From Pseudomonadota bacterium (GTDB lineage Bacteria > Desulfobacterota > Desulfobulbia > Desulfobulbales > Desulfurivibrionaceae): a stretch of 64,000 bases of DNA. A program made the position numbers and the translations under genes. A model generated the notes under the pieces. The model worked only from the letters and a program-made list of their open reading frames with translations, made no database searches and was not told the DNA's origin. The stretch lies in NCBI GenBank assembly GCA_018830485.1, contig JAHJRQ010000002.1:13211-77210 (forward strand), in the 5' to 3' direction. Below are positions 2,897-47,473 of this stretch, one piece after another (positions within the stretch are counted from its first letter, which is position 1; the number at the start of each line of letters is the position of its first letter).

Positions 2897-3882
2897 CCGA
2901 TGGCCTCAAGCAGTTCGGCGGTGGAGGCGGTGGCCGTGCCCACCTTGCCAACGACGATGCCTGCGGCGAAATTGGCGATGGTGGCGGCGTCCGCGGCGGA
3001 AAGACCCACGGCCAAACCCAGGGCCAGGGTGGCGATCACGGTGTCCCCTGCGCCGGTGACATCGTACACCTCCTTGGCCATGGTGGGGATGGTGAACAGG
3101 GGCTGGCCCTTTTCGTACAGGGCCATGCCCGCCTCGCCCCGGGTGATGAGGACCGCGTCGCTGGCCAGTTTTTTCTGCATGAGATGGGCTGCGCTTTCAA
3201 GATCCTTCTCGTTTTTAATGGCCATGTCGGCCATGCGCTCGGCCTCGTGCAGGTTGGGGGTGATGATGGTGGCGCCGCGAAATCGTTCCGGGTGCTGGGG
3301 CTTTGGGTCAATGATCAGCGGGATGTCTCGTTTTTTGAGCCGGCTGCGCAGATGGTCCATCAAGGGCTGGTTGATCATGCCCTTGTTGTAGTCGGAAACG
3401 ATGACCGCGTCAAAGCTCGCCAGGTGGTCGTCGATGAAGCGGCAGATATCCGCCAGCCTCTCGGGGCTTGGCTCACCGGTTTTTTCCCGGTCGAAGCGCA
3501 CCACCTGCTGGTGCTGGGCTACGATCCTGGTTTTGAGGGTGGTGGGGCGGTTTCCGGTGCGGACGATGCCGGTGGCAGGGGAGCCGATCTCGGCCAGCAG
3601 GCCCAGGAGATGGTCGCCCATGGCATCGTTGCCGATCAGGCCGCAGAGGGAGGCGCGGCTGTTCTGGGCGTAGATGTTGTGCAGGACGTTGGCCGCCCCG
3701 CCGAGAAGCAGGTTTTCGTGGGTGACGTCCACCACCGGCACCGGCGCCTCCGGGGAGATCCGGGAAACCGAGCCCCAGATGAAGTGATCGACAATGATGT
3801 CGCCGAGCACCAGGATATTAGCGGAGCTGAATGTGCCGACGGCATCGCGCAGCTGTTTCTTCTTTGTGGTGGACAGGGTCAC
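2893..3882 (-). CDS. hldA: D-glycero-beta-D-manno-heptose-7-phosphate kinase (RfaE domain I only; no adenylyltransferase domain)
   Basis: PfkB ribokinase-fold motifs: ILVLGD.I.D.F..G...RISPEAPVPVV, TPN..EAE and DVTGAGDTVIA. I trimmed the start to GTG at 3882 because the listed 566-aa ORF extension overlaps treY and has no homology signal. 4-nt overlap with yicC. Confidence 0.8.
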   Translation of the reverse strand: MTLSTTKKKQLRDAVGTFSSANILVLGDIIVDHFIWGSVSRISPEAPVPVVDVTHENLLLGGAANVLHNIYAQNSRASLCGLIGNDAMGDHLLGLLAEIGSPATGIVRTGNRPTTLKTRIVAQHQQVVRFDREKTGEPSPERLADICRFIDDHLASFDAVIVSDYNKGMINQPLMDHLRSRLKKRDIPLIIDPKPQHPERFRGATIITPNLHEAERMADMAIKNEKDLESAAHLMQKKLASDAVLITRGEAGMALYEKGQPLFTIPTMAKEVYDVTGAGDTVIATLALGLAVGLSAADAATIANFAAGIVVGKVGTATASTAELLEAIG

Positions 3883-3966
3883 GGACCGGCTCCCGGGGTC
3901 AGGTTGTACAAGAAGGCCCGGTTGCCCGGACAAGGCGCAACCAGCCGTAAGGATACGAAAAAGGCA

Positions 3967-3995
3967 ATTATAGACTTCTTGGGAAGCTTGGGCAA
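3967..3995 (-). promoter_or_regulatory. sigma-70-like promoter for hldA (TTGCCC-N17-TATAAT on the minus strand)
   Basis: The reverse complement reads TTGCCCaagcttcccaagaagtcTATAAT, about 85 nt upstream of the GTG start, in the only sizeable gap between treY and hldA. Confidence 0.4.
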
Positions 3996-4060
3996 GCAAA
4001 GAAATGCGCTGAAACCCCGCAAAGTATAGTTGCGCGGGCGGCTTGATCCGGAGAGCCCTG

Positions 4061-6973
4061 TCAATGGCTCTTGTAGAGCAGGGCCAAGGGGAAGAAGCGC
4101 AGCACATCGGAGACCGGCAGAACATCCTGGCTGCCCTGGCGGATGGGGTGGTGCATCTCCCCGGTGAAAATGTCGCGGTAGCTTTCGGCCGCAGCCTTGT
4201 CCGGCAGGGAGATGCAGGTTTGTCCCCACACCGTCTCGGCAACATCCGAGTAAGGTGCATCGTGGCCGGAGAGGAGCGAGGCAAAAAAACGGGGCGCCAC
4301 GGCAATGAGCTGTTCTTCCGCCAGGGAACGGGCCAGCACGCACAGATGGCGCCCGGCTTCGCCGTGGACAGCGAGCCCTTCGTAAGCGCCTTCGGCAAAG
4401 AGGGCGGGGTGCTTGCGGCGAAAATGCAGAGTACGGCTGGTGACAAAGAGCTTGGCCCGCCCATCCGCCAGAGTCGCCAGCAGGGAGGCCAGCGCCGGTC
4501 CTGACAGGGGTTCCTCCGCAAAGATGCCCGCCAGGTCGCCGAGCAGATGCTGGGCCTGGAGGAAATCCACGGGGTGCCGGTTGTCCGGATCAACCAGGCT
4601 GAAATCCCAGAGCTCGTTGCCCTGATAGATATCCGGCACCCCGGGGGATGTCAGCTTGAGGAGCAGTTGGGACAGGGAATTGAGCAGGCCGAAGCGGCTG
4701 ATTCCTTCGCAAAACTCCGAAAAATCGGCAAGAAAGAGGTTGTCCCGGCCCGGACGCAACACGCTCGTGACAAACGAGGCAAGGGCCTCCTCGTAGTCGG
4801 GATCGGGATTGAGCCAGGAGGAATGTTCCTTGGCCTCCCGCACCGCCTTGAGCATATAGGCGGTGATCCGCTCCCGATACCGGGCCAGTTCCTGTTCCGC
4901 CGGATGCGGGATGGGCCAGGTGCCCAGCAGGGTCTGGTAGAGATGGTATTCCTCGTTGCGGCTTGGCGCCGCATGCCCGCGCAGGCGCCGGGCATGGCGG
5001 CGGTTGTGCCGTTGCCAGCGCCTGACCCGCTGTTTCCAGAGGTCGGGAATTTCACTGAGAAGGTTGATGCGGGCGCGGACATCCTCGCTGCGTTTGCTGT
5101 CATGGGTCGAGGTGGCGAGCATGGCCCGGGGCCAGTGTTGCCGCCGGGCCTGGTTGGCCTGGTGAAAGGCTGTTCTGGACACGCTGAAGCGCCGCGGGTC
5201 GCCCCCCACCTCATTCAAGGAGAGCAGACGGCAATCCCGGTAGAAAAGTGTGTCCTCCTGAGCCTTGGCCATGACCGGCGCCGTGTACTGTTGAAATTTC
5301 ATGGCGAAGCGGGCCATCTTGCTCCGCATGCCCCGCCGGTTGCTGAAGATCCTTGCCAGCAGGAGGCAGTCGCGGACAAAATCGAAGATGGCCGGGTCGG
5401 TCATGGGATTGCGCTGCTTGGCGTCGGCCACGGCCCAGTCCACATAGCGGCGGTCTTCCTCGCTCACTTTTGCCGGGGTCACATAGGTTCGATATACCGG
5501 AAAGCAGGCCACCACCTCGGTGAGCGCTTCCCTGAGGCCGGTGAGGGTGAAATCGCGGCTCTGGAAATCCTGCTCGGCGATCTGGCGCAAGAGGTTGGCC
5601 AGCACCGCCAGTTCTCCGGCAAGCTGCGCCTTGATGATCAGTCGTTTTGCCGCATAGAGATTCTCTTCATATGCGCTGTCCCGGCCGGTGCAGAGCTGGT
5701 AGGCGCGGGTGAGGGGCTTTTCCCCTTCCGGGCTTACGAACAGGCCATTGAGCAGGCTGGCGAAGTCGTAGCCCGTGGTGCCGTGGATTGGCCACTCCTT
5801 GGGCAAGCCTTCATAAATGGCGAGGATCTTTTCCGCCACCAGATAAAAGGAGGGGAGCAGGCTGCCTTGCGTCACGGCCTGCGGCAGGCGGCGCCGGATT
5901 TCGGCGCTCAGCCGGTCATAATAAGCCTGGGGATTGAAGAGGCCGTCCGGATGGTCGATGCGCAGGCCCTGAAGGAATCCCTGCTCGACGAGGGAGAAGA
6001 GGAAGCGGTGGGTTGCGGCAAAGACCTCGGCCTCCTCCTGGCGAAGGCCGGCCAGGGTGTTGATGTTGAAAAAACGGCGGTAGTTGATCTCGTCCGTTGC
6101 CACCTTCCAGAAGGCGAGCCGGTAAGGCTGCTTTTCCAGGAGACGGTGCAGCAGGGCATATTTTTCTCCGGAATCTTTGGGAGCATTGAAGAGAGCCAGG
6201 CTGAAGGCCAGGGCCTCCTGGATGGTTTTTTCCCGGGCGAGCAGGGCAAGCTCCCCTTTGCCCGCGGCCTGCCGCTCCCGCCGTTCAGCCCGACGGCGCC
6301 GGCTTGCCGTCTGCCGGCCCGGCAGATGCCGGCAGACGGCAAGCAGTTGCTGCAAGCGGGCAAGAATCTCCGTCCCAGCATCATGGTGTTGCTTGAGAAA
6401 GGAAAGGGCCGGGCCGAGGATCTGGGGATAGGTTTTCGGATCAATGGGCAGCCGGTGCCCATAGTAATGCGCGGCAAACTCTCCCTGTTCCGCGGCAAAG
6501 GCGAGTTCGATTTCTCCGCGGCTTAGAATATTGCCATAATAATCGCCAAGAATGGGCAGCAGCACCTTGCCGGAAAAAATCCGGGCAGCCTGCGGGTGCC
6601 AATCGATATCGAAATAGGCGGCATACGGCGAAGCCGGGCCGTTTTCGAGAACATCGAGCCACCAGCCGTTGTCGCTGCCGCCGATCCCCATGTGGTTGGG
6701 CACGAAGTCGAGAATGAGCCCCATGTCGTGGGCGTGCAGGGTTTCCACAAAACTCCGGAATTCCTCCGCAGTGCCCAGCTCCGGGTTGAGGGCGTTGTGA
6801 TCGACGATGTCATAGCAGTGGCTGCTGCCGCTGCGGGCCTTGAGCAGCAGGGAGGCATAACAGTGGCTGATCCCCAAGGCATGCAAATAGGGGACGATGC
6901 GCTCGGCATCGGCAAAGGTGAACCCGCTGTTGAACTGGAGGCGGTAGGTGGCCAGGGGAAGGGGCGGGATCAT
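4061..6973 (-). CDS. treY: malto-oligosyltrehalose synthase
   Basis: 970 aa. N-terminus ATYRLQFN..FTF.DA..IVPYL..LGISH.Y.S..L.A..GS.H.YD..DH...NPELG is the TreY signature, and the size fits. Confidence 0.9.
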   Translation of the reverse strand: MIPPLPLATYRLQFNSGFTFADAERIVPYLHALGISHCYASLLLKARSGSSHCYDIVDHNALNPELGTAEEFRSFVETLHAHDMGLILDFVPNHMGIGGSDNGWWLDVLENGPASPYAAYFDIDWHPQAARIFSGKVLLPILGDYYGNILSRGEIELAFAAEQGEFAAHYYGHRLPIDPKTYPQILGPALSFLKQHHDAGTEILARLQQLLAVCRHLPGRQTASRRRRAERRERQAAGKGELALLAREKTIQEALAFSLALFNAPKDSGEKYALLHRLLEKQPYRLAFWKVATDEINYRRFFNINTLAGLRQEEAEVFAATHRFLFSLVEQGFLQGLRIDHPDGLFNPQAYYDRLSAEIRRRLPQAVTQGSLLPSFYLVAEKILAIYEGLPKEWPIHGTTGYDFASLLNGLFVSPEGEKPLTRAYQLCTGRDSAYEENLYAAKRLIIKAQLAGELAVLANLLRQIAEQDFQSRDFTLTGLREALTEVVACFPVYRTYVTPAKVSEEDRRYVDWAVADAKQRNPMTDPAIFDFVRDCLLLARIFSNRRGMRSKMARFAMKFQQYTAPVMAKAQEDTLFYRDCRLLSLNEVGGDPRRFSVSRTAFHQANQARRQHWPRAMLATSTHDSKRSEDVRARINLLSEIPDLWKQRVRRWQRHNRRHARRLRGHAAPSRNEEYHLYQTLLGTWPIPHPAEQELARYRERITAYMLKAVREAKEHSSWLNPDPDYEEALASFVTSVLRPGRDNLFLADFSEFCEGISRFGLLNSLSQLLLKLTSPGVPDIYQGNELWDFSLVDPDNRHPVDFLQAQHLLGDLAGIFAEEPLSGPALASLLATLADGRAKLFVTSRTLHFRRKHPALFAEGAYEGLAVHGEAGRHLCVLARSLAEEQLIAVAPRFFASLLSGHDAPYSDVAETVWGQTCISLPDKAAAESYRDIFTGEMHHPIRQGSQDVLPVSDVLRFFPLALLYKSH

Positions 6974-8832
6974 GGCCGGAGTCCTTTCGTCCGGGCCGGA
7001 GCAAGAAACCAGAAGACCGACCAGGGCGGCAGCGCGGTTTCCTGCTCGTTTTCCGGCAAGTCATGGCTGGCAAAGAGCGGCGGCAGCTCAGGGAGTCTGA
7101 GCGCTGCATCCGGCCGCGGGCCGAGATTAGCAAAGAGCAGCAGGCTCTCTCCGGTTTGCAGGGGCCAATGCACCGAAAGGCCGGCTTGTCCGAGGGGGTG
7201 CCAGAGATTTTTTCCGGGTTGCAGCGCCGGAATCCTGGGGATGATCTCCCTGTGGCGGAGACGGAGGAGTTGGCGATAATAGCCATGCCAGGCGGCGCCT
7301 TCGCTCGTGTCGAGCCCCCGCCAGTCGAGTCTGGCCGAGAGGACGGTCTCCGCCGCAGCCGGGTCCGGGATGCGGGCGCGGTTTTCCGGGGTGCTGAATT
7401 CCGGGAATCCGGCAAACTCCCGGCGCCTGCCTTCGGCAACCTGTGCGGCAAGGTCCGGGGAAAAATCGCAGAAAAAAGGGAAAGGCTGCCGGCTGCCCCA
7501 TTCCTCGCCCATGAAGAGCAGGGGCGGCGAGGGCGCCAGCAGGAGCAGGGCCAGGGCGCTTCGCAACGCTTCCGGATCGGCGAGCAGGCTGAGGCGCTCG
7601 CCCAGGGCGCGGTTGCCGACCTGATCGTGGTTTTGCAGAAAACCGATAAAGGCGGCGGCGGGCAGTGTGCGGCTTGGCTCGCCCCGGGGAGCGTTGTCCC
7701 GCCAGGGGGAGGCTTCGCCCTGATAGGCAAACCCCTCTGCCAGGCAGCGGGCTAAATGGCGGTTCGGCGCTTCGGCATAGTCACGGTAATAGCCGTGTTT
7801 TTCGCCGGTGAGGAGAACATGCAGGGAATGGTGCAGATCATCGTTCCATTGCGCCGTATAGCAGCGCGGGCTGCCGGAGCTGTCCCGTTCAAGATAGCGG
7901 CTCTGGTTGCGGTCGTTTTCCAGAATCAGGTGAATGTGGCGTTGCGGCGGGAAATGGGTTCGTACCGCCAAGGCTATTTCCTCTAGGATATCCGGCCTGT
8001 TTCGGTCGTGGATGGCGTGCACCGCATCGAGGCGCAGACCGTCGAAATGGTACTCGTTGAGCCAGTAGAGGGCGTTTTCGATAAAAAACCGGCGAACCCA
8101 GTAATTTTCGGGGCCGTCGAAGTTGATGGCCTCCCCCCAGGGGGTCTGGTAGCGATCGGTGAAAAACTGCGGGGCATAGCCATGCAGATAATTGCCCTCC
8201 GGACCGAAGTGGTTGTAGACCACATCGAGCAACACCATGAGGCCTCTGGCATGCGCCGCGGCAACCAGGCTTTTGAGATCCTCCGGCCGGCCGTAGCTTG
8301 CGGCGGGAGCAAAGGGGAGGACGCCGTCGTAGCCCCAGTCGCAACGGCCGGGAAAGGCGGCCACCGGCATCAGTTCGATAGCGGTGATCCCCAGTTCGGC
8401 CAGATGATCGAGGCGCTGTTCCACCTCGGCAAAGGTGCCTTGCGCGCTGAAACTGCCCACGTGCAGTTCGTAGAGCACCGCCTCCTCCCAGGGCCGGCCT
8501 GGCCAGGCGGGTTCAGGCCAGGGGAAATCGGCCGGGGCGATCACCTCGCTCGGCCCGTGCACGCCTTCGGGCTGAAAGCGGGAAGCCGGGTCAGGTACCA
8601 GCCGGCCGGAGGCGAGCTGAAAGCTGTAGCGGCTGCCTTGTCCGGCATCCGCCGTTTGCCGCTCAAACCAGCCCGATTCCAGGCGGAGCATGGGAAGAAA
8701 TTTCTTTTTCCCCCGGCAGTCAAGACAGAGGGAAATCTTTTCGCTTTCCGGGGCCCAGAGGCGGAAGCGCACCGCGCCGGAAGGCAGGAGCGCAGCCCCG
8801 AATGCCATCCGGTGCTCACGGCGTCTGGTCAT
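6970..8832 (-). CDS. treZ: malto-oligosyltrehalose trehalohydrolase
   Basis: GH13 motifs ([47 protein letters not shown]) behind an N-terminal E-set domain. An alternative start MAFGA at 8808 would remove the overlap with glgX. Confidence 0.9.
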
Positions 8833-10975
8833 GGCGATCCGTTTCCCGCCCCCCGGACTCCATCAGGAGAGCCAGGCTGCGGCCGAGCAGCGGGTAGCGG
8901 TCTTTGGCAGTCCAGAGCCGCTTTTCTCCGGGGCTGCCGTCCGAGCTTCCGGTGTCCAGCCGGACTCGCCAGCGGGTTACTGGAGCCAGGTCCGGGATGG
9001 TAAAGGGGATGGTTTCGTGATGGGCGTTCACCAGCAGGAGAAACCTGTTGTCCATGATGGGGTTGCCTTTGTCGTCCTCTTCTTCCAGACGGTCGCCGGC
9101 CAGGAAGAGCCCCAGGCAACGGGCAAAGGCATGTTGCCATTCCTCGTCGGTCATTTCCGTACCCGCCGGAGTCAACCAGATGATATCCCTGACACCGCCG
9201 CCTGTGATCAGGCGGCTTTGGAAAAAGTGGCGGCGATGGAAGACGGGATGCTTCTTGCGCAGGGCGATCAGAAAACGAACGAAATTCATCTGCTCATCCT
9301 GTTCGGCTGCCAGGGTCCAGTCCAGCCAGCTTAAGGGGTTGTCCTGGCAATAGGTGTTGTTGTTGCCCTGCTGGCTTCTGCCCATCTCGTCTCCGGCAAG
9401 GAGCATGGGCACCCCCTGGGAGAGGAAGAGGCTGGCGAGGAAGTTGCGTTTCTGGCGAGCCCGCAGCGCCTTGATCTGCGGGTCGGCGCTTGGCCCTTCG
9501 GCGCCGCAGTTCCAGCTGTGGTTGTTTGTCTCGCCGTCCCGGTTTTCTTCGAAATTCGCTTCGTTGTGTTTCTGGTTGTAGCTGACCAGATCGTGCAGGG
9601 TGAAGCCGTCATGGCAGGTGACGAAGTTGATGCTGGCATAGGGGCGCCTGCCCCCATGTTCGTAGAGATCGCTGGAGCCGGTGAGCCGGTAGGCCAACTC
9701 GCCGATCTTGCCGCCTTCCCCTTTCCAATAGGCGCGCACCGTATCCCGGTATTTGGCGTTCCATTCTGTCCAGCCCGGGGGGAAGTTGCCCACCTGATAG
9801 CCGCCTTCCCCGAGATCCCAAGGCTCGGCGATCAGCTTGACCTGGGAAAGCACCGGATCCTGGTGGATGATATCGAAAAAAGCCCCCAGCCGGTCCACCT
9901 CGTACAGCTCCCTGGCCAGAGCCGAGGCCAGATCGAAGCGGAAGCCGTCCACGTGCATCTCCAGGACCCAGTAGCGCAGGCTGTCCATGATCAGTTGCAG
10001 CACCCGGGGGTGGAGCATGTTCAGGGTGTTGCCGCAGCCGGTAAAATCCATATAGTGGCGCTGGTTCTCGGGCTCCAGGCGGTAATAGGCAAGGTTGTCG
10101 ATGCCTCGGAAGCAGAGGGTCGGACCCAGCTGATTGCCTTCGGCGGTATGATTGTAAACCACGTCGAGAATGACCTCGATGCCCGCCGAGTGCAGGGTTT
10201 TCACCATGGTTTTGAATTCGCTGATCTGACCGTAGGCTGAATAGCGGCTGTCCGGGACAAAGAAGCCGATGGAGTTGTAGCCCCAATAATTGCCGAGCCC
10301 TTTTTCCACCAGATGACGTTCATCGACAAAGGCATGCACCGGCATCAGTTCCACCGCCGTAATGCCCAGCCGTTTGAGGTGATCGATTGCCGGCGCCGAG
10401 GAGAGTCCGGCGTAAGTGCCGCGCAACTCCTTGGGGATCCGGGGGTGGAGGCAGGTAAAGCCTTTGAGGTGCAGTTCGTAGATGATGGTATTGTGCCAGG
10501 AGGTGTGGGGCGGCCGGTCATCGCCCCAGGTGAAGGCCGGATCGATCACCTGGCATTTGGGCATGAACGAGGCGCTGCTGCGCCGGTCGCAGGAAAGATC
10601 GGCCAGAGGGCTGCCGATCCGGTAGCCGAACAAGGCGTCATGCCAGCGGAGCTTGCCGGCTATCGCTTTGGCATACGGATCAAGGAGCAGCTTGGCCGGG
10701 TTGAAGCGCAATCCCCGTTTCGGGGCATAAATGCCATGGACCCGGTAGCCGTAAAGAAGGCCGGGCCGCGCTTCGGGCAGGTAACAGTGCCACACCTGGT
10801 CGGTTTGCCAGGCCAGGTTGATGCGCTCGACTTCCGTCCGGCCACGTCGATCAAAAAGGCAGAGCTCCACCCGGTCGGCATGTTCGGAAAAAATGGCGAA
10901 GTTTACTCCCTCGCCGTCCCAAGTGGCGCCGAGCGGGTATGGATTGCCTGGCCAGACCGCCATTTTTCGATGCAT
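8816..10975 (-). CDS. glgX: glycogen debranching enzyme (GlgX/TreX)
   Basis: 719 aa. [25 protein letters not shown] start, then GH13 motifs ([41 protein letters not shown]). Confidence 0.9.
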
Positions 10976-11006
10976 ATGGTCCCCTCGCCGTTGTTGTCGC
11001 GGCGGC

Positions 11007-12248
11007 TCAGTTCAGTTCTATGCGGTACTCGTCCTTGTGGCGCAGTCCGACCATGAGAGTGAGGTATTCGCGGAGATGCCTGGTCAAGAGGAAATTTTCC
11101 CGGGCATACTCCTTGCCTTTGATCCCCATCTCCTGCATCCGCGTTTTCTGCCGCAGGAGGTAGCGGATGCGCAGGGCCGCCCCTTCCGGGGTGTGCACCA
11201 GAAAACCGGTGTGGTAGTTGATGACCTGCAGCCGGATGCCGCCAGTGTCGCCGCCGATCACCGGCTTGCTCTTCCACATGGCCTCAGTAACCGTGAGCCC
11301 GAAACCCTCCTTGGTCGATTTTTGCAGGACGATATCCGCGGCCCGCTGCAGGGCGTTGATGGTGCGGTGGGCGTCCGGCGCCAGCAGAAGGATGTGGACA
11401 TCCGGATCGTTGTTTGCCATCTCCCGTGCCTCGGCGAGGACGATGTCCCCTTCCGGGTCGTCGCTGGCCCCGCCGCCGGCAAGAACCAGCTGCAGGCTGG
11501 GGATGAATTTTTTGGCCAGCCGGTAAGCCTGGATGACGCCCACCGGATCCTTGAAACGGTCGAAGCGGGAGACCTGCACCAGGAGGGGCCGGGCCGGATC
11601 AAGATCGAACTCGGCCCTGACGCGGTTCACCTCCTCTTGCGACAGCTCGATATTTTTGTCGCTCAAGGGATCGATGCTGGGCGGGATGATGTATTGCGGA
11701 TGCTGCAGCGGCTGGGCAAAGGCCGGCAGGGAGAAGATGCTGGCATCGTACCGGTCCACCATTTTGCGCAGATATTTCCACACCGGGCGGTAGGGGTGGC
11801 TGGCATCAATGTGGCAGCGCCAGACCCATTTCCCGCGACGGTTCGGACAATGGGCGAGAAGGCCGGCAGGTTGCGGGTCGTGGATAAAAACGAAATCCGC
11901 CTCGGAAAGTTTTTCCCGCAGGATTTCGGCGTTGGCTTCATTGGCCTGCTCGTAAGCGGCCAGAAGGGCGGCGTTGATTTGCACCCGGTTGCCTTGCAGT
12001 CCATTGTGCATGGACTTGGTGCACTGGTAGAATTCCTCTCCCCCGCTAATCACCTCCCAGCTGGTATCAAGACCCAGTTCGTTGGAAAGCGGCGCTAATT
12101 TTTCCAGAATCTCGGCCACCCCGCCTCCGATCCGGGTGGAGTTGACATGGACAACCTTTGTGCCGCGCAAGGATTCCGCCAGCTGACGGAGATGATCGAT
12201 AACATCGGGACCGGTTATGGCGGCATAGGATTCGAGCAGGCTGCTCAT
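11007..12248 (-). CDS. treT: trehalose glycosyltransferring synthase (TreT-type GT4)
   Basis: 413 aa. [52 protein letters not shown] and [18 protein letters not shown] match archaeal TreT sequences as I remember them. Confidence 0.75.
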
Positions 12249-12916
12249 GCAACACCTCCCGCGAAATAGGCGCTGAAAAGTTCGGCCAGCTCCTGGCGGA
12301 TCTGACTGAGGCTGGAAAAGAAGGGATCGATGGCGGCCAGCTTCGCACAGAGGTCCTGGTATTCCGCCCCGTAGCCGGTCAGCCAGAAACGGAAATCGTC
12401 GCTGCTTTCCGGCATCCGGCTGCGGGCATCGATGAAATGGTAGAAGATGCTGCTGGTGGACATCTTGGGGATCTGCTCGGCCAGGTCGGCGGGTTTTTCC
12501 AGACGGCGGTGGGTGTCAAAAACCACCAGTTGGCCGCGGAGGAACTCGAACTGCCTGGCCGCAGGCATCCAGTGTGCGTTTTCACTTTGCTCCAGACACT
12601 CTTCGATGATCTCCAGGAGTTCCTGCCGGATCGCCTCCACGTTTTCGGCCTCCCCGGGATCGATGGCGGCCAACCGTTCGGCCAGTTCGGGTTCGCGCAG
12701 GCTGTGGCGGACCCAGCCGGCGAAATCGTTGTGGAATTCGCGCTCCTCAAAGCGGGGGACCAGGAGGCCGCCCCAGAAATGGTGGTAGATGCTGGCCGTG
12801 TTGACCAACTGCAGATTGTCCCGCAGTTCGGCAAGATTTACGGCCTTCCGACCGGTGGCGATGGTGATTAGTGCGCAATCCTTGACGGCAAAGAAGAGGG
12901 CTTTTTCCTTTTCCAT
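12245..12916 (-). CDS. conserved hypothetical protein made of two tandem ~105-aa repeats (possibly DUF5752-like), translationally coupled to treT
   Basis: Start set at MEKEK (ATG 12916), preceded by AAGAGG. Its stop overlaps the treT ATG (ATGA). Both halves share S.SI(Y/F)(H/Y)HF ... DF..W ... L...LAAIDP ... IRQEL.E. Confidence 0.6.
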   Translation of the reverse strand: MEKEKALFFAVKDCALITIATGRKAVNLAELRDNLQLVNTASIYHHFWGGLLVPRFEEREFHNDFAGWVRHSLREPELAERLAAIDPGEAENVEAIRQELLEIIEECLEQSENAHWMPAARQFEFLRGQLVVFDTHRRLEKPADLAEQIPKMSTSSIFYHFIDARSRMPESSDDFRFWLTGYGAEYQDLCAKLAAIDPFFSSLSQIRQELAELFSAYFAGGVA

Positions 12917-13001
12917 AGTTGTGCCTCTTGTTGGGGTGGGCACTCACAAGTGGAGTGAAACGGAGGGGAAAATCGACTAGTTCCTTCTTCAGCACTTTTT
13001 T

Positions 13002-13172: not shown

Positions 13173-13208
13173 AAAAAAGGCCCTGCCGGAGATGGTTCCG
13201 GCAGGGCC
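13173..13208 (-). terminator. rho-independent terminator after the rhodanese gene
   Basis: 12-bp GC-rich stem GGCCCTGCCGGA/TCCGGCAGGGCC with a 6-nt loop, followed on the minus strand by TTTTTTAT. It lies about 55 nt after the stop at 13263. Confidence 0.8.
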
Positions 13209-13262
13209 TCGCACTGCAAAACAACTGCGGGGTAGCAGTTGTTTCTTAAGGAGCAGGGGGGA

Positions 13263-14582
13263 TTATTCGCTGATCACACAATCGCTTCCTGAGCATTCCA
13301 CATCGGAAAGCAGGAAGCGGCTCTTGAAGCCCGCTTTGTCCAGAGCGGCTCTGGCCATTTCCGCCCGGGCTCCGGTGGTGCAATGGATCAGTATCTCCTT
13401 GTCCTTGGGCAGTTCGCCGATCCGCTTTTCGATCTCATCCAGCGGAATGGTCAAGGCATTCTTGAAGGAGCATTCCTTCACTTCATCCTTGGTGCGGACA
13501 TCCAAGATCACTTGGTTGGAGCTGCCTTCCAATGCCTTTTTGAACTCGGCTGCGCTGACCTCGTTCTTGCCAAGTTTCCTGGTCCAGGAGATGGAGGCAG
13601 GGGTGTGGCCGGTGGCCAGCTTGTTGCCCTTGTTCGTCCAGGATGTAACCCCGCCCGGCCAGATGGAGCCGGATTTGACGCCCCATTTTTTCATTATGTC
13701 ATAGCCCTGCTGCGCCTCAAGAAATGAGTTGGCATAGACCACGACAGGGGCTTTGAGCGGGAGAGCGTCCTCCTTTGCGGCCAGAGAGGCCAGGGGGATG
13801 TTGTGCGCCCTAGGAATATGGCCCGCTTCGTATTCTTCCTTGGAGCGCAGATCCACCAGGACGATGTTGTCGGTTTTGACAAATTTTTCCGAGGCGGTGA
13901 CGCTCTTGCCGGCTTTTTTCCAGCCGGGGGTGCCTGCAAGGAATACGCGTACATCGGTGTGACCCATTTTTTTCGCCAGACCGGCGGATTTAGGGCTCAT
14001 GCCTCACGTGAAGCCCCCGCAATAGAAGATCAGGGTGGTCTTCTTCAGGCGGGCGTCGGCGGGCAGGTGGGCGTCGCCGGTTTCCATATGCACCGTGTCG
14101 GGAAGCGAGATGGCTGTGGGGATGTGTCCCTCGTGGTAGCGGGCGGCAGGACGGGAATCGATCAGCACATAATTGCCCTCTTCCGGGCCCATGGCAATGA
14201 GCTTGGCAAGCTCATCGACCTTCATCTCCGTTACTCCCGGCGGGAGAGTGGCGAGCTTGGGCTCGACGGAGGTGGCGAAGCGGTCAGCCCCGCGCAGTTC
14301 AAACTTGACGATCGCGGCCTCGCCTTCAACGGCGTGTTCCAGACCCTTGGTTGTGTCGTCGAATTTGAGGAATTCGTTCTTGCCCTTCACCTCGATGGAG
14401 ATGGTTTTGGCCTTGTTGGATTTGCCGGTGATCTTGCCGGTAAAGGCGTTGGCCTCCTGGGCTGCTGCCTGCGGGGCATGGCCGGCGGCAAAGGCCGGCG
14501 AGCCGGAAAGGCTCGGGCCGCCCGCGAGAAGCCCGGTAATGAGCAGGAACGGAATCCATCTGCGTAACGGTTTGTTGTGCAT
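13263..14582 (-). CDS. exported three-rhodanese-domain sulfurtransferase with an in-frame TGA (14004..14006), read here as candidate selenocysteine
   Basis: ATG 14582 is preceded by GGAGA, and the signal peptide is MHNKPLRRWIPFLLITGLLAGGPSLSGSPAFA. ORFs 14004..14870 and 13263..14000 share a frame and are separated only by TGA-GGC. The stop cuts rhodanese domain 1 inside its catalytic loop (LIFYCGGFT-TGA-GMSPKSAGLAKKMGH...GTPGWKKAG). Domain 2 lacks Cys. Domain 3 has the canonical HCTTGARA. Confidence 0.6.
13974..13986 (-). promoter_or_regulatory. SECIS-like hairpin apex downstream of the in-frame UGA
   Basis: The mRNA reads UGA GGC AUG AGC CCU AAA UCC GCC GGU CUG GCG. CGCC/GGCG forms a stem with a GGUCU loop. 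The GGUC starts 25 nt from the U of UGA, and a possible CCC...GGG lower stem flanks it. Confidence 0.4.
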
Positions 14583-14608
14583 AATCGTTCTCCTTGAAAT
14601 AATGATGA

Positions 14609-15070
14609 TTATCCGGGTTGGTTCGTGGGGCATTCGGTACTGGGTATCTCTGGTTTCCTCCCTGGTTGGTGTCCGTCTTGTTGTTTCAGTCGGTCCAGAG
14701 CCTCTTGCACACTCCGGAGCAGGGTTGCCGGTTCGAATGGCTTGGTGATGCAGGCCAGGCAGCCGTGTTTTTTTAAGGCATCGCCCGTTGTCTCGCGGAT
14801 ATCTTCCGCCAGGACGAGATAGGGGATGGCAATGGCGCTTCCGGACAGGGCATGCATGAAGGCGGCGCATGCCTCCGGCGAGGCCGAATCGAGATCAACG
14901 ATCAGCAAATCAACGGGATCCCGGGTGCAGGCCAAGGTCTTGAGCAGCGCAACGGCTGCCTCCGTGTTTTCCGCAAGGCTGACGCGGTAGTCCGCCTGTT
15001 TGAGCATGAGGCCGAGGCTGTGCTGCAGATTGAGCCTGTTTTCCGTGAGAAGGATGTGTTGTGTGGCCAT
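14609..15070 (-). CDS. stand-alone response-regulator receiver domain protein (partly degenerate acidic pocket)
   Basis: Start set at MATQH (GGAG 4 nt upstream). LLIVDLD phospho-acceptor and KPF lysine are present. The N-terminal acidic pair is replaced by TE, and the conserved T/S position is Ala. Confidence 0.7.
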   Translation of the reverse strand: MATQHILLTENRLNLQHSLGLMLKQADYRVSLAENTEAAVALLKTLACTRDPVDLLIVDLDSASPEACAAFMHALSGSAIAIPYLVLAEDIRETTGDALKKHGCLACITKPFEPATLLRSVQEALDRLKQQDGHQPGRKPEIPSTECPTNQPG

Positions 15071-15135
15071 GCGCTCCACAGTGTAAAATTGTTTTGCTCC
15101 CAAAAAGGGGCTTGCAATGCTTTGTGTAAGTAGAA

Positions 15136-15150
15136 GCAAGATAAGTGCCA
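15136..15150 (-). promoter_or_regulatory. sigma-54 (-24/-12) promoter: TGGCAC-TTATC-TTGC
   Basis: The reverse complement of gcaagataagtgcca is TGGCACTTATCTTGC, with exact GG-N10-GC spacing. It lies about 65 nt upstream of the receiver gene start and directly downstream of a sigma-54 activator gene. Confidence 0.7.
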
Positions 15151-15299
15151 GGGGTGGTGTTTTTGTGATATCTCTTTGGAATTATTCAGAATACTGTTTT
15201 CATCTGGCAGGGGATTGCGGACAATGGGGTGCAAGTAAATTTGCGCTGAAGAACTGAGTGCAGAGTGCTGAGAGCTGGGTGCTGACGGCGGCTATTTCC

Positions 15300-16721
15300 T
15301 CACTCACCCCGGTCCGCCTGTTTGAGTCGCCAGTTGAGGGCCTGACGGGTAATGCCGAGCATCTCCGCGGCAATGGCCTGATTGCCGTTGGCCCGGTTCA
15401 GCGCCTCCAGCACCAGGAGGTAGCTCGCCTCCTTGATGGAGGGGAGATGCGGGAGATCGGCAAACGGGGTCCTGGTTTCCGGGTGTTTTTTGACCTCCTC
15501 TTCCAGGTTGGGTCTTCTGAGCCGGAGGTAGTCCTTGAAGGCATCCATGGACAGGGTGCGATTCTTGTGGGTGCTCATGGCGTCAAAGACCATGTTCTGG
15601 AGCTCCCGGATATTGCCGGGGAAATCATAGGTGCCCAGCAGGGTGATCAGCTCCTTGGGAAAGCCTGGTTTTTTCTTATTGAGCCGGACCGCACCCTCCT
15701 CGAAGAAATGATCGACCAGCAGGGGCAGGTCGTCGAGCCTTTCCCTTAAGGGAGGGATATGGATGCGGTGGGCATGGAGCCGGTAGTAGAGGTCCTTGCG
15801 GAAACCGCCGTTTTCCTGCATCTCCTGGAGGTTCTGGTGGGTGGCGAAGATCATCCGGCAATCGGTGCGTTTGGGGATGTCCGAACCCAGGGGCAAAAAC
15901 TCCCGCTCCTGAAGGAGGCGGAGCAGCTTGGTTTGCGAAAGCTGGGAAAGGTCGCCGATTTCATCCAAAAACAGGGTGCCCCCCGCGGCCTGCTCGATGA
16001 GCCCCCTCCGGGTCTGGTCCGCCCCGGTGAAGGCCCCCTTCTTGTGGCCGAACAGCGTGTCGGAGAACATGGTGTCGTCGAGGCCCGCCACATTGACCGG
16101 GACAAACTCGCCTTTGCGGTTGCTCAACACATGCAGGGCCTGGGCGATGAGCTCCTTGCCCACCCCGGTTTCGCCGGAGATCAGCACCGGCTCGCTGGTG
16201 TCGGCAATGGATTCCATGTACTGAAAGATGGAGCGCATCCTCTTGTTGTGGGTGGTGATCCGGCTGAAGGCCTCGGGGCGGTCCAGCTTGTCCTTGAGGA
16301 AATGTTCCTTGAGCAGGTCGTTTTCCTGGCGCAACCGGCTCAGGTCGACGGCCCGTCGCACCCCGGCAATGAGGCGGGTCTCCTCGCTGACCTTGGTGTA
16401 GTAGTCGAAGGCCCCGAGTTTCATGCACCGCACCGCGGTGTCCACCAGATCGAGGCCGGTGATGATGATCACCGGGATCTGCGGGTGCTCGCGCACGATC
16501 CGGGGCAGCAATTCTTCTCCCGGAAGGTGGGGCATGGTGAGATCCAGGACGATCACCCCGATCTCCTCGTTGGCCAAAATCTCCATGACCTTGCTGCTGT
16601 CGGCGCAGCAGCGGATATTGCTCAAGCCCACGGAGCGCAGGGTCAGGCTGAAGCTGTGCAGCCAGGCCTCTTCATCGTCAACCAGCAGGATGGGCCGAAC
16701 CGGGGAGAGCTGTTTATCCAT
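15300..16721 (-). CDS. sigma-54-dependent response regulator (NtrC family: REC + AAA+ + Fis-type HTH)
   Basis: 473 aa. ILLVDDE...VLDL.MP receiver, Walker A GETGVGKE, GAFTGA sigma-54 contact loop, FLDEIGDL, RLN and R-finger region, and a C-terminal GNQ..AA.MLGI.RQAL..RLK HTH. Confidence 0.92.
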   Translation of the reverse strand: MDKQLSPVRPILLVDDEEAWLHSFSLTLRSVGLSNIRCCADSSKVMEILANEEIGVIVLDLTMPHLPGEELLPRIVREHPQIPVIIITGLDLVDTAVRCMKLGAFDYYTKVSEETRLIAGVRRAVDLSRLRQENDLLKEHFLKDKLDRPEAFSRITTHNKRMRSIFQYMESIADTSEPVLISGETGVGKELIAQALHVLSNRKGEFVPVNVAGLDDTMFSDTLFGHKKGAFTGADQTRRGLIEQAAGGTLFLDEIGDLSQLSQTKLLRLLQEREFLPLGSDIPKRTDCRMIFATHQNLQEMQENGGFRKDLYYRLHAHRIHIPPLRERLDDLPLLVDHFFEEGAVRLNKKKPGFPKELITLLGTYDFPGNIRELQNMVFDAMSTHKNRTLSMDAFKDYLRLRRPNLEEEVKKHPETRTPFADLPHLPSIKEASYLLVLEALNRANGNQAIAAEMLGITRQALNWRLKQADRGE

Positions 16722-16800
16722 GGGAAAAAATCCTCCTGAAATTTCCTGCCGAGCGGAGGGCTGGGCGAGCTGCTTACCCTACCCGGCTTGCGCCATTTTG

Positions 16801-19140
16801 TCACCCGGCTTTGGGGGGGGGCGGTGCCGATGCTTTCTCCCGCCAGACCGGAAAGGAGAGAGTCGCGGTGGTGCCTGCTTCCGGGCTTGAGGCAAAGCGC
16901 AGTCTGCCCTGGTGCTCCTTGATGATCCCGGCGGAAACCGAGAGGCCGAGGCCGGTGCCGCCATATGAACGCTTGGTGGTGAAGAAGGGGTCGGTTATCT
17001 GATTGATGATCTCTTGGGCGATGCCGGTGCCCTGATCGTGGACGCGCACCTCCACTTCGTCGTTGTCCGCGTCATGGCGGGAGGCGATGGATATGGCCGC
17101 CTCCGGATTGGTCAGGGCCTCGCAACTGTTCTGAATCAGGTTGATCAGTACCTGCTCCAGCCGCTGCCTGTTGCCCCGGATGGGCGGCAGGTTGGGTGCC
17201 AGATCGGTGCTGAATTTCCGGGTGGCGTTTTTGATTTTGTTGTGGTTGAGGCGCACCGCCGCTTTGGCGATCTCGTTGATCTCCACCGGTTCCATGTGGC
17301 GGCTGGTGTCCTGGCGGGCGTAATCCTTGAGATCATGGACAATATTCTTGATCCGCCGGGCGCTTTCCTCCAGTTCGAGGAAAAGGCGGGGGATCTGCTC
17401 GCACATCTCGCTGTATTGCAGCCCGGCAATGAGAAAGTCGCCGTGTTCGCGGTAGTATTCGTCGAGGATCGGCTTGGCGCTTTCCCAGGCCTTGAAGAGC
17501 ATGGAGGTGTTCAGCATGGCGATGCTGTTGGGGTTGTTGATCTCATGGGCCACCCCGGAGATGAGCACCCCCAGCGAGATCATCTTGTCCGCCTGGACCA
17601 ACTGCTGCTGCTGGAGCCTGGTTTCATCCTCGGCCCGCCTGCGTTCGGTGATGTCCCGGATGATCCAGATGGAGTTCCACTTATCCTTGATCCGGGCCTC
17701 GGAAAGCGAAAGCTCGATGGGCAGTTCCGAACCGTCCTTGCGTCTGGTGATCAGCTCGATGGTTTCGCGGATGGGCCCGTCGCTCATCGGCTTATCCGCG
17801 ACGGCGTCCCGCTGGCCGTATTCGGAAAGACGCGGGGAAATCAGGGTGTGGATCGGCTTGCCCAGGGCCTCGGCGGCGGAAAAGCCGAAGATCTCGGCGG
17901 CGGCCTCGTTCCAGTAGGAAATATTGCCGTGGTGGTCCATCATGGCGATGGCGTCCTGGGCGGAGGCGGTGAGGTTTCTGAACTTGTCCTCGCTCTGGCG
18001 CAGGTCGGCTTCCGCCTCCTGCTGCCGGGTGCGGGTGATCGCATAGCGGCTGGCCAGGGTGGTGAGCTCCTCGGCCAGGTTGACCACCTCGCGGGGGCCG
18101 GTCCAATTGAATTGCACGTTTTCCTGCCCCTTGTTCAGAATGGAGTCCAGGCCGGTGAGGATGGCGTCCTTGATCCGGTCGATTTTTTGGGCGATGGCGT
18201 TGGCAATGAGCGAAACGATGACCGCGATGGTGATTACGATCCCGACGATGTTATAAATCAGGGAAAGCTTCCATTCCCTGGCCGCGCTGCGATCCACCGG
18301 CGTGCCCAGCCACAGGGCCGGGGGAAGATTGTCGTTGAAAATGAGCGGCAGCCAGATAAGGCTTTGGCCGGAGCCGTTCTCCCAGACAAAGGGGCGGTTC
18401 TCCGCAAGATGGGAGGCAAGATCGGGGAAAAGGGCAAGGAGGTCGGCGCCGGGAGTGACCGGGTGCATCGGCTCCAGATCGGGAAAGGTGGCCGGGGCAT
18501 GGACAATGATGCCAGCGGGCGTTACCCGGCAGGCATCGACATGGGCATCGAGTAACAGATCCGGGGCAAGATCCAGGATGAGCACCCCGGCCGCGCCGTC
18601 CTCCGTTCCGGGAATCGGGGTCGCAAGACTCAGGCGGTTGGCGGCGGGATCGGCCTGATCCCCGGTCAGGAGCGTGTCGACCTCGGATGTTTTAAGCGCC
18701 AGCCCTTTCTGGAGGAGCTGGGATTGTGCTTCGGCATGTGCCGCTTCGGTGGGGGCGGCTTCCAGGGAATCGCTGTTTCTGCGGAGAGAAATCAGTTGGT
18801 TGCCCGAGGGATCGAGCAGACGAACGCCGAGGATCATCTTTTCCGTGTTCAACTGCCCCCGGAGCAACTCTGCAAGCCGTTGGCGACCGGCAGGGTCCAG
18901 GGAGGAGGGGGTGAGCCCGGCGCTCAAGGGGGTGGCGGCTGCCTGGAGGAGGCTTTTTTTGATGCATTTCACCCTGGCATTGAGGGAAACAAAGCTGCTT
19001 TCGGCAGCGGCGGCGGTCCGTTTTGTCTCCACTGTTTCGTGCTGGTTGATGTGGGCGCGGAGATTGACTCCCACCAGGCTGAGGATGGGCAGGATGCCAA
19101 GGGCAAGGAGGATGATGAAGATGATGGTCCGCAGTTTCAT
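16801..19140 (-). CDS. sensor histidine kinase (TM - ~300-aa extracytoplasmic domain - TM/HAMP - PAS - HisKA - HATPase)
   Basis: Start set at MKLRTIIFIILLALGILPIL. A second TM segment lies around LIYNIVGIVITIAVIVSLIANAI. PAS region (FRNLTASAQDAIAMMDHHGNISYWNEAA), H-box GVAHEINNP, N/G boxes (LINLIQNS, DQGTGI, GGTGLGLS). Confidence 0.85.
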   Translation of the reverse strand: MKLRTIIFIILLALGILPILSLVGVNLRAHINQHETVETKRTAAAAESSFVSLNARVKCIKKSLLQAAATPLSAGLTPSSLDPAGRQRLAELLRGQLNTEKMILGVRLLDPSGNQLISLRRNSDSLEAAPTEAAHAEAQSQLLQKGLALKTSEVDTLLTGDQADPAANRLSLATPIPGTEDGAAGVLILDLAPDLLLDAHVDACRVTPAGIIVHAPATFPDLEPMHPVTPGADLLALFPDLASHLAENRPFVWENGSGQSLIWLPLIFNDNLPPALWLGTPVDRSAAREWKLSLIYNIVGIVITIAVIVSLIANAIAQKIDRIKDAILTGLDSILNKGQENVQFNWTGPREVVNLAEELTTLASRYAITRTRQQEAEADLRQSEDKFRNLTASAQDAIAMMDHHGNISYWNEAAAEIFGFSAAEALGKPIHTLISPRLSEYGQRDAVADKPMSDGPIRETIELITRRKDGSELPIELSLSEARIKDKWNSIWIIRDITERRRAEDETRLQQQQLVQADKMISLGVLISGVAHEINNPNSIAMLNTSMLFKAWESAKPILDEYYREHGDFLIAGLQYSEMCEQIPRLFLELEESARRIKNIVHDLKDYARQDTSRHMEPVEINEIAKAAVRLNHNKIKNATRKFSTDLAPNLPPIRGNRQRLEQVLINLIQNSCEALTNPEAAISIASRHDADNDEVEVRVHDQGTGIAQEIINQITDPFFTTKRSYGGTGLGLSVSAGIIKEHQGRLRFASSPEAGTTATLSFPVWREKASAPPPPKAG

Positions 19141-43638: not shown

Positions 43639-44601
43639 ATGATTATTGTGAAATTATCAACCCCTCTGTTTGGGATGCCGCAGGAGGTGTTGGCTAATAT
43701 TTTAAAGCAGACTCCTTCGTGCCTCGGAAGGTGGGAGGGGATTCAATTGTATGCAAATACCGATATCGAGTCATGCGATTTTTATATCGTATTTGAGGGC
43801 TTGGAAAAAAAAGAAAAAGTACTATGTCCTCCTCAAAACACGGTTTTTGTGGCGGCTGAGCCATCCTCGCTGAAGCGCTATGATGAGTCATTTCTTGCGC
43901 AATTCGCAACAGTAATTACCTGCCAACGCGGGATGAAACATTCCAATAAACATTACAGCCAGCCAGGCCACACCTGGTTTATCAAGAAAAACTATGATGA
44001 GTTGATGCGGACTGCATCCGTGCAAAAAAATAAATTGTTGTCAATCGTAACCAGTAATAAGCAGGAGAGTGAAGGGCACAAAAAAAGATATGAGTTTTGC
44101 CTGAAGCTCAAGGAGTATTTCGGCGAGGCAGCGGATTTGTATGGCCGGGGGATACATGAGTTTGAAGACAAATGGGATGTTCTGGCTCCTTATAAATATT
44201 CTGTCGCCATAGAAAACTACATTGAGCCGGATTGGGTAACGGAAAAGATTGGGGATTGTTTTTTGGCGCATACTTTCCCTTTTTATTCCGGGGCGCCAAA
44301 TGTGTCAAAATATTATAAGGAAGAAAGTTTCGTAACTATTGATATAGATAATTTCGCATTGTCGTCCGGAAAGATTGAAGAAGTTGTTGCTGATGAATTT
44401 CATTATGAAAATAGTTTTCCTGCTTTGCTTGACTCAAAAACAAGATATCTGAATAATGTCAGCCTCGTCCCCATGCTGCATAATTTTATTATGTCTGGGA
44501 TTTGCAAGGGAAAACAACACAAAGAACCGATGGTTTTTTATCCGGAAAAGAGCAAGGCTTTTTTGTTCTTTAAAAAGATGTTCAAGCCCCGGAGTAATTG
44601 A
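43639..44601 (+). CDS. GT10-like glycosyltransferase, copy B (divergent paralogue of copy A)
   Basis: 320 aa. YKYSVAIENYIEPDWVTEKIGDCFLAHTFPFYSGAPN. Collinear with copy A along its length (CD.Y.VFEG, AEP..LK.Y...FL.QFATVITC, GRGI.E.EDKWD.LAPY). Confidence 0.65.
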   Translation: MIIVKLSTPLFGMPQEVLANILKQTPSCLGRWEGIQLYANTDIESCDFYIVFEGLEKKEKVLCPPQNTVFVAAEPSSLKRYDESFLAQFATVITCQRGMKHSNKHYSQPGHTWFIKKNYDELMRTASVQKNKLLSIVTSNKQESEGHKKRYEFCLKLKEYFGEAADLYGRGIHEFEDKWDVLAPYKYSVAIENYIEPDWVTEKIGDCFLAHTFPFYSGAPNVSKYYKEESFVTIDIDNFALSSGKIEEVVADEFHYENSFPALLDSKTRYLNNVSLVPMLHNFIMSGICKGKQHKEPMVFYPEKSKAFLFFKKMFKPRSN

Positions 44602-44604
44602 GCC

Positions 44605-46508: not shown

Positions 46509-46517
46509 GGATTCGCG

Positions 46518-47354: not shown

Positions 47355-47473
47355 AATTGTTCTCTTTAGTTGTATGTTTGTTTCTTTTTGTGTCCACACT
47401 GGATGAACCAATAGTCCACGTCTTGATTACCGAGGATGTTTCAGTAATCGTATTCGCTAATTCATTGAGTTAG

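Follow-up and report, generated by a model that had tools for sequence, protein, structure and literature searches.

What do a sensor kinase and a sigma-54-dependent activator control when the genes beside them encode a small receiver and an exported rhodanese with an in-frame TGA codon? This question is raised by a 64-kb stretch of DNA derived from a metagenome assembly of a member of the Desulfurivibrionaceae (GCA_018830485.1, contig JAHJRQ010000002.1, positions 13,211 to 77,210), hereafter called the window and numbered from its own first letter. All parts of the putative circuit lie on the window's minus strand, in the order kinase, activator, promoter, receiver, rhodanese, and terminator. 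We consider the probable explanation to be a sigma-54 two-component regulon with a sulfur-handling seleno-rhodanese as its output. A preliminary description of this DNA had proposed the same core, i.e., a kinase and activator acting through a -24/-12 promoter on a receiver and an exported selenorhodanese; conservation of gene order, promoter, and an upstream dyad supports this proposal, and every feature that it listed is present where it was placed. The features are as follows:

16801..19140, minus strand: sensor histidine kinase (open reading frame, ORF; Pfam PAS, HisKA, and HATPase_c)
15300..16721, minus strand: NtrC-family sigma-54 activator (ORF; Pfam receiver (REC), AAA+, and Fis-type helix-turn-helix (HTH))
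15257..15285, minus strand: two TCAGCAC repeats and one CTGCACT repeat, a doubtful auxiliary site (read from the sequence)
15231..15244, no strand: GCAA-N6-TTGC dyad, predicted activator site (sequence and 14-locus alignment)
15166..15183, minus strand: A+T-rich element of the ATTTCAnnAAGATAC type, between dyad and promoter (conserved alignment columns)
15135..15150, minus strand: sigma-54 -24/-12 promoter TGGCACTTATCTTGCT (sole exact consensus match in the window)
15081..15098, minus strand: 5' leader element AGCAAAACAATTTTACAC (near-invariant in 14 loci)
14609..15070, minus strand: atypical single-domain receiver of 153 residues (ORF; Response_reg score)
13263..14582, minus strand: predicted exported tri-rhodanese selenoprotein (translation through TGA; three Pfam rhodanese stretches)
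14004..14006, minus strand: in-frame TGA, very probably selenocysteine, residue 192 (aligns with Cys of homologues)
13974..13986, minus strand: hairpin CGCC-GGUCU-GGCG, resembling a selenocysteine insertion sequence (SECIS) (kept across TGA loci)
13177..13210, minus strand: intrinsic terminator closing the receiver-rhodanese operon (14-bp stem, 10 G-C pairs, T-run)

We compared the window with 80 related loci (~1.35 Mb, both strands scanned). In 35 of these loci the rhodanese gene is flanked by orthologues of the kinase and activator, in two gene orders: a collinear layout, in which kinase, activator, the receiver where present, and rhodanese follow one another, and a divergent layout, in which the rhodanese is transcribed away from the kinase and activator. 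Kinase orthologues adjoin the rhodanese in 31 loci and activator orthologues, with 60–96% identity, in approximately 35. Linkage persists as identity falls to ~43% for the kinase and ~60% for the activator (43–97% for the two proteins overall). The closest genomes, those of Hydrosulfovibrio ferrireducens CB1MN and an uncultured Desulfurivibrio, encode proteins 95–97% (kinase), 96% (activator), and 86–87% (rhodanese) identical to those of the window. The whole module is also present in the cultured Thiovibrio frasassiensis, including the promoter, a dyad at -94, the receiver, the TGA codon, and the hairpin. Linkage between the kinase/activator pair and the rhodanese, whose conservation the preliminary description had left to be checked, is thus kept in ~35 genomes of sulfur-cycling Desulfobulbales, which argues that the arrangement did not arise by chance. 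As a separate observation, the rhodanese of the window is far more diverged from that of Hydrosulfovibrio (86%) than are the kinase and activator (96–97%).

The intergenic region between activator and receiver contains the sequence TGGCACTTATCTTGC at 15150..15136(-), the sole exact match to TGGCAC-N5-TTGC on either strand of the 64 kb. This is the element that had been claimed for this gap, and it is present on the correct strand and is followed by the consensus W (15150..15135). Approximately 0.25 consensus matches are expected per window, which corresponds to ~5e-4 for the minus strand of the 230-bp gap. Its GG and GC doublets are 10 nt apart and it lies 65 nt ahead of the receiver ATG. Across the 80 loci, TGGCA[CT]-N5-TTGC[AT] was found 35 times, and 31 of these occurrences fall directly 5' of the rhodanese or receiver-rhodanese genes. 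Of the 35 loci with the kinase/activator pair, 28 have the strict promoter, compared with one of the 36 pair-less loci with enough flank.

Two invariant islands stand out in an alignment of 14 intergenic regions, namely the promoter and the GCAA-N6-TTGC dyad. Such a dyad, in the form [G/T]CAA-N6-TTGC, lies upstream of the strict promoter in 27 of the 28 kinase/activator loci that have one. It begins 94 nt 5' of the promoter TGG in the window, and 22 of the 31 promoters have it between -92 and -95. Variants of this spacing were also observed: eight loci of one group (L021/L022) have TCAA-N6-TTGC at -127 to -130 (five with confirmed divergent order, three on contigs too short to tell), dyads occur at -70 and -157 in a further locus (L019), and more distant loci contain a second dyad ~82 nt further upstream. 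This conservation makes the dyad a probable binding site of the activator. The preliminary description had offered both the dyad and a set of repeats as upstream activator sites, and only the dyad stands. The repeats, i.e., GTGCTGA at 15265..15271 and 15279..15285 (TCAGCAC on the coding strand) and AGTGCAG at 15257..15263, are kept in the closest relatives only, and the first falls within an indel in most loci.

Two further intergenic elements are conserved. The A+T-rich element between dyad and promoter is a possible bending or IHF-like site; on inspection it did not fit the IHF consensus. The leader element AGCAAAACAATTTTACAC, which lies 3' of the promoter and 5' of the receiver gene, resembles a degenerate dyad, and two receiver-less loci (L014 and L015) have a perfect GCAA-N6-TTGC at the same position; this element may act as an operator downstream of the promoter or as a signal in the leader RNA. 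At the other end of the operon, a G+C-rich 14-bp stem with a T-run at 13210..13177 follows the rhodanese and matches the strong terminator of the preliminary description (there 13208..13173). Taken together, the occurrence of two independent gene orders in ~35 genomes and the way in which promoter and dyad track the kinase/activator pair make it highly likely that the kinase and activator switch on the rhodanese operon.

The architecture of the circuit is that of a standard NtrBC/AtoSC-type sigma-54 regulon. As in NtrB/NtrC, AtoS/AtoC, and ZraS/ZraR, a PAS-HisKA-HATPase kinase is paired with a REC-AAA+(GAFTGA)-Fis-HTH activator the target operon adjoins the regulators, and a dyad is located ~100 bp from the -24/-12 promoter. 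The activator matches Pfam Response_reg (PF00072, 9.8e-22), Sigma54_activat (PF00158, 1.3e-58), AAA_lid_14 (PF25601), and HTH_8 (PF02954, 1e-6). Its AAA+ domain carries KGAFTGA, in agreement with the intact GAFTGA reported for it, and its receiver domain keeps the phosphorylation residues (acidic pair in LLVDDEE, VLDLTMP, IIITG, and YYTK). The nearest NCBIfam models are AtoC and NtrC, all under cutoff (AtoC 326 vs 714 bits). The circuit differs from these systems in its rare double-Cache sensor, its exported seleno-rhodanese target, and the additional CxxC receiver within the target operon. Given this textbook architecture, the surprise lies in the target rather than in the mechanism.

The kinase comprises a first transmembrane helix, a periplasmic double-Cache region (approximately residues 27–292), a second transmembrane helix, a linker, and the PAS, HisKA, and HATPase_c domains, with HEINNP as its H-box. 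An AlphaFold model of residues 1–345 (mean confidence score, pLDDT, 88.5) consists of a long N-terminal helix and two PAS-like alpha/beta modules, with a transmembrane helix on either side. Foldseek matched this model to the double-Cache sensors 2p7j, 3lid, 5wbf, and TlpA (E 4e-10 to 1e-8, template modeling (TM) score up to 0.65), and Pfam dCache_1 matched the sensors weakly, in 16 of 31 orthologues with a best value of 1.2e-6. The model thus points to a double-Cache domain of ~265 residues in the periplasm as the sensor. An extracytoplasmic sensor had been described from the sequence; a periplasmic sensor is indeed present, with its length corrected from ~300 residues to that of this domain. 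This type of sensor is rare: an exhaustive HMMER search of 1.84 billion proteins, required since a word-indexed search with the same domain gave just four matches, yielded 95 representative clusters.

The receiver encoded at the start of the target operon scores 28.6 bits against Response_reg, compared with a Pfam cutoff of 30.2. Sixty homologues were found; across 36 of them D59, C104, P111, and F112 are invariant and E10, C68, C107, and K110 near-invariant. Its acidic pair is [T/A/V]-E in place of the canonical D12/D13, and by CheY numbering the equivalent of Thr87 is Ala and that of Tyr106 is Cys107. By the same numbering, the C104-x-x-C107 motif sits in strand beta5. The preliminary description was right about the position of this receiver and its non-canonical acidic pair; its view of a degenerate pocket is not upheld in so far as it implied decay, because Asp59, Lys110, Glu10, and the CxxC motif are conserved. 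These patterns indicate a receiver that is specialized and under selection, not decaying. Since D59 and K110 are kept without the Thr/Tyr switch, it looks phosphorylatable but devoid of the usual output switch, a pattern consistent with a phosphate sink or with a feedback element modulated by thiols. We propose such a role, feedback element or phosphate sink, tentatively and at well below an even chance. The receiver is confined to the closest subclade (15 of the 80 loci, plus Thiovibrio) and is thus accessory to the circuit.

The reading frame of the rhodanese, which runs from 14582 to 13263, is broken solely by a TGA codon at 14006..14004. This codon aligns with an invariant Cys of full-length homologues (~438 residues) within the motif F-Y-C-G-G-x-T-[C/U]-G-M-S, found in 73 of the 80 loci; the codon is TGA in 62 of them and TGC in 11. 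The hairpin CGCC-GGUCU-GGCG starts 20 nt after the U of the UGA and is present in 61 of the 62 TGA loci, compared with one of the 11 TGC loci, the remaining Cys loci deviating at synonymous positions. We take its GGUC loop to resemble that of the E. coli fdhF SECIS. The folding energy of the single sequence after the UGA was no better than that of shuffles (z = 0.42), and a scan of the whole window gave no Rfam match at the gathering threshold, so that no curated SECIS or leader RNA is found there; as neither approach detects the hairpin, the case for a SECIS rests on its comparative conservation. The alignment of TGA with Cys and the distribution of the hairpin bear out the bracketed (seleno)rhodanese of the preliminary description, and we conclude that the TGA is very probably decoded as selenocysteine. 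No tRNA gene was found in the window. In one locus (L018, ~10560-10610), a TGC rhodanese gene retains the full hairpin GCCGCC-GGUCU-GGCGGC, which suggests a recent conversion of selenocysteine to Cys.

Many database homologues of the rhodanese are C-terminal fragments of 245 residues, which arise where gene callers break the reading frame at the TGA. The tri-rhodanese of T. frasassiensis (GCA_029607905.1, L082:8483-9799), for example, was called as two ORFs of 191 and 245 residues, which shows that selenocysteine went unrecognized for this rhodanese family in that assembly.

The rhodanese gene starts at 14582, behind an AAGGAG ribosome-binding site and 26 nt past the receiver stop, the spacing previously given for an exported tri-rhodanese; its product does contain three PF00581 rhodanese stretches (4.3e-43). 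They are preceded by a signal peptide and an N-terminal beta domain, which matched no Pfam family even at E 0.5, and are followed by a C-terminal CxxxxC, a Cys pair that is conserved. The active-site loop of domain 1 is extended and carries C187-x4-U192, Cys is absent from domain 2, and domain 3 has a classical HCTTGARA motif in which C400 and R405 are invariant. Homologues have signal peptides, with a lipobox in distant ones. A structure model (pLDDT 86) was matched by Foldseek to the multi-rhodanese proteins 1yt8, EanB, and YnjE, and domain 3 matches Wolinella Sud (1qxn, 4.6e-6). None of the NCBIfam models that matched reached its cutoff (TsoB NF045694, 46.2 of 805 bits; ExtH NF040901, 15.4 of 200; LYCAU rhodanese NF041203, 52.5 of 115), and none of the four circuit proteins reached an equivalog cutoff.

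Paralogues of this protein were also observed. An exported di-rhodanese of ~240 residues, with an FYC-x4-C-x-KS loop and thus C-x4-C, follows the activator within the kinase-activator operon of divergent loci, e.g., L025:5234-5959(-). In L017, such a di-rhodanese at 6672-7403(+) follows the tri-rhodanese and is succeeded by a methyl-accepting chemotaxis protein (MCP)-signaling protein and a MauE-like protein. Another paralogue (L026, from the same metagenome-assembled genome as L001, with C-GGPS-C) was rejected as a member of the circuit, as neither psr nor a two-component system adjoins it.

Exported rhodaneses of several described systems share some of these traits. The window protein shares with Sud of Wolinella succinogenes its export, a catalytic Cys in a rhodanese domain, and the presumed role of carrying polysulfide sulfur to a periplasmic reductase. 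Unlike Sud, a homodimer of single-domain subunits, the window protein has three rhodanese domains, an N-terminal beta domain, and Cys-x4-Sec (Sec, selenocysteine), and there is no psr gene in the window. It may work in a Sud-like manner without being a Sud-type member. E. coli YnjE, a periplasmic sulfurtransferase with three rhodanese domains, is also an exported multi-rhodanese (Foldseek 2wlr/3ipo, E ~1e-10), and only its last domain is active. It shares just 15% identity and a global TM score of ~0.22 with the window protein, and YnjE and PspE have neither Sec nor a dedicated two-component system. E. coli PspE provides a precedent for a periplasmic rhodanese under sigma-54 control. FisR-type activators similarly exert sigma-54 control over sulfur-handling genes; FisR itself is a one-component cytoplasmic sensor of sulfide and sulfane sulfur with no receiver domain, whereas the circuit described here would sense periplasmically through its double-Cache kinase.

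Rhodanese selenoproteins have been catalogued bioinformatically as form 1 (UxxS), forms 2–4, and TsoB with UxxxxU (PMC13188914). By motif description, the U-G-M-S of the window protein fits form 1 (representative WP_010941598.1), and its C-x4-U parallels the U-x4-U of TsoB. The Geobacter rhodanese ExtH, with ExtKL (MccSep), offers another parallel, namely an exported rhodanese encoded beside MccSep, an arrangement also seen in nine Desulfocapsaceae loci (PMC6148476; PMC13510729). In contrast, the window and its close relatives have no MccSep nearby and carry the two-component system instead. Literature searches found no description of a sigma-54/rhodanese regulon, of this tri-rhodanese, or of this two-component system, consistent with the earlier statement that no system of this composition was known.

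The nine Desulfocapsaceae loci bear on what the rhodanese may do. In each, a gene for an MccSep-like pentaheme cytochrome c with an in-frame TGA (AGHVIPDG*PTPNR) lies immediately 5' of the tri-rhodanese (L064:8122-9465; also L051, L053, L056, L061, L063, L067, L068, and L074). The ORF scan splits it into pieces of 319 and 118 residues, and AGHVIPDG*PTPNR matches the Sec-containing peptide of MccSep. This periplasmic enzyme reduces polysulfide, is required by Geobacter for S0 respiration, and also reduces selenite, and its authors leave room for further periplasmic sulfur-transfer components (PMC13510729). The Psr operon of Desulfurivibrio dismutans, which is induced in sulfur disproportionation, includes a secreted three-rhodanese sulfurtransferase (PMC12142623), and T. 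frasassiensis disproportionates S0 and thiosulfate (bioRxiv 10.1101/2022.10.27.514068). On the strength of this MccSep adjacency, the Psr-operon rhodanese, and the disproportionating T. frasassiensis, we favor a Sud-like polysulfide carrier or activator. A function in polysulfide or sulfane-sulfur handling is a serious candidate, though still somewhat short of an even chance. The preliminary description had suggested polysulfide, thiosulfate, or selenium as possible signals; the same adjacency, together with hosts that disproportionate sulfur, makes a sulfur compound the likelier candidate.

We envisage that the membrane-bound double-Cache kinase would detect a small periplasmic ligand and phosphorylate the adjoining NtrC-family activator. 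The activator would then bind the GCAA-N6-TTGC dyad, starting 94 bp 5' of the -24/-12 promoter, and remodel the sigma-54 holoenzyme to allow transcription of the two-gene receiver-rhodanese operon, with the atypical receiver most likely feeding back on phosphate flow. In sulfur-reducing or -disproportionating Desulfobulbales, the rhodanese would bind and pass on, or reductively process, periplasmic sulfane sulfur (polysulfide) and supply it to MccSep, Psr, or similar periplasmic reductases; its Cys-x4-Sec pair possibly adds reductive chemistry. A bolder version of this model, in which the kinase is a dedicated periplasmic sensor of zero-valent sulfur (polysulfide) in these hosts, the Cys-x4-Sec tri-rhodanese is its sole local target and the missing periplasmic partner that transfers or activates sulfur for MccSep/Psr-type polysulfide reductases, and the co-induced CxxC receiver provides persulfide-sensitive feedback that tunes phosphate flow, appears unlikely as a whole.

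Several observations weigh against the sulfur-regulon explanation. Double-Cache domains mostly bind organic small molecules, so the fold of the sensor does not imply a sulfur ligand. Neither a psr nor an MccSep gene lies near the circuit in the window, and its neighbors there are unrelated, i.e., a GHL10 lipoprotein, trehalose and glycogen enzymes, DnaE, and housekeeping genes. Seven kinase/activator loci have near-consensus promoters only. Finally, a scan of the window found no RpoN box, placing rpoN outside the window, and no MccSep.

An alternative that keeps the rhodanese exported is that it serves as a periplasmic thiol/selenol redox or detoxification enzyme that protects the envelope against sulfide, cyanide, or oxidants, and is of the PspE- or DsbD-linked type instead of a respiratory carrier of sulfur. 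Its Cys-x4-Sec pair is like redox motifs, divergent loci encode an exported C-x4-C di-rhodanese in the kinase-activator operon, and the periplasmic rhodanese gene pspE of E. coli belongs to the sigma-54/PspF-dependent psp operon. TsoB, a selenoprotein fusion of rhodanese and DsbD, has U-x4-U in the same loop (PMC13188914), and the NCBIfam TsoB model matches residues 123–232 of the window protein. That match reaches just 46 of the 805 bits of its cutoff, no Dsb or thioredoxin partner is encoded in the neighborhood, and the MccSep adjacency points toward energy metabolism; we regard this alternative as unlikely.

Still less probable is that the same circuit has an output handling selenium or tellurium oxyanions and a kinase sensing selenite. 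Selenite and tellurite reduction in Geobacter is linked to the rhodanese-like lipoprotein ExtH and the porin ExtI (PMC5877670; PMC6148476), MccSep reduces selenite as well (PMC13510729), and the window rhodanese is itself a selenoprotein with a weak NCBIfam match to ExtH (E 0.007, 15.4 bits). However, this score is far under the cutoff of 200, Cys forms of the rhodanese are common (11 loci), the hosts are sulfur disproportionators or reducers, and no selenium-specific genes are close by. Lastly, the idea that the adjacency is incidental, with the pair controlling other targets and the -24/-12 match arising by chance or being non-functional, could draw on the at least one exact promoter match found in 21 of 100 shuffles of the 64 kb, but it is extremely improbable and already contradicted by the comparative data, since promoter and dyad recur at fixed spacing in ~30 loci despite diverged intergenic DNA, track the rhodanese in both gene orders, and are near-absent where the kinase/activator pair is lacking.

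Beyond the circuit, genes that recur downstream of it (an rfaE-like kinase, YicC, RemA, Gmk, and an RNA methyltransferase) were considered as partners and set aside as housekeeping synteny. In the window, the terminator of the rhodanese operon is instead followed by ~9 kb of genes for DUF5752, a TreT-like trehalose synthase, GlgX, and alpha-amylase-family proteins (3263..12943). Hydrosulfovibrio (L004) and Thiovibrio (L082) lack this trehalose/glycogen block at the same place and continue directly into the housekeeping synteny, so the block looks like a lineage-specific insertion or rearrangement. Elsewhere, the G+C content falls to 0.42–0.43 at 44000..48000, compared with ~0.6 in the rest of the window; this segment may be an island gained by horizontal transfer.

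Little is understood of the ways in which anaerobes perceive and process insoluble or zero-valent sulfur outside the cytoplasm, and the step that initiates sulfur disproportionation has yet to be identified. The locus offers a compact handle on both questions, with a defined sensor, activator site, promoter, and single exported selenoprotein output, and the module occurs in the cultured species T. frasassiensis and H. ferrireducens. The locus also draws attention to a widespread family of selenoproteins that gene calling splits at the TGA. The kinase and the seleno-rhodanese are a well-defined candidate pair of sensor and output for extracytoplasmic sulfur, and one that is approachable by experiment.

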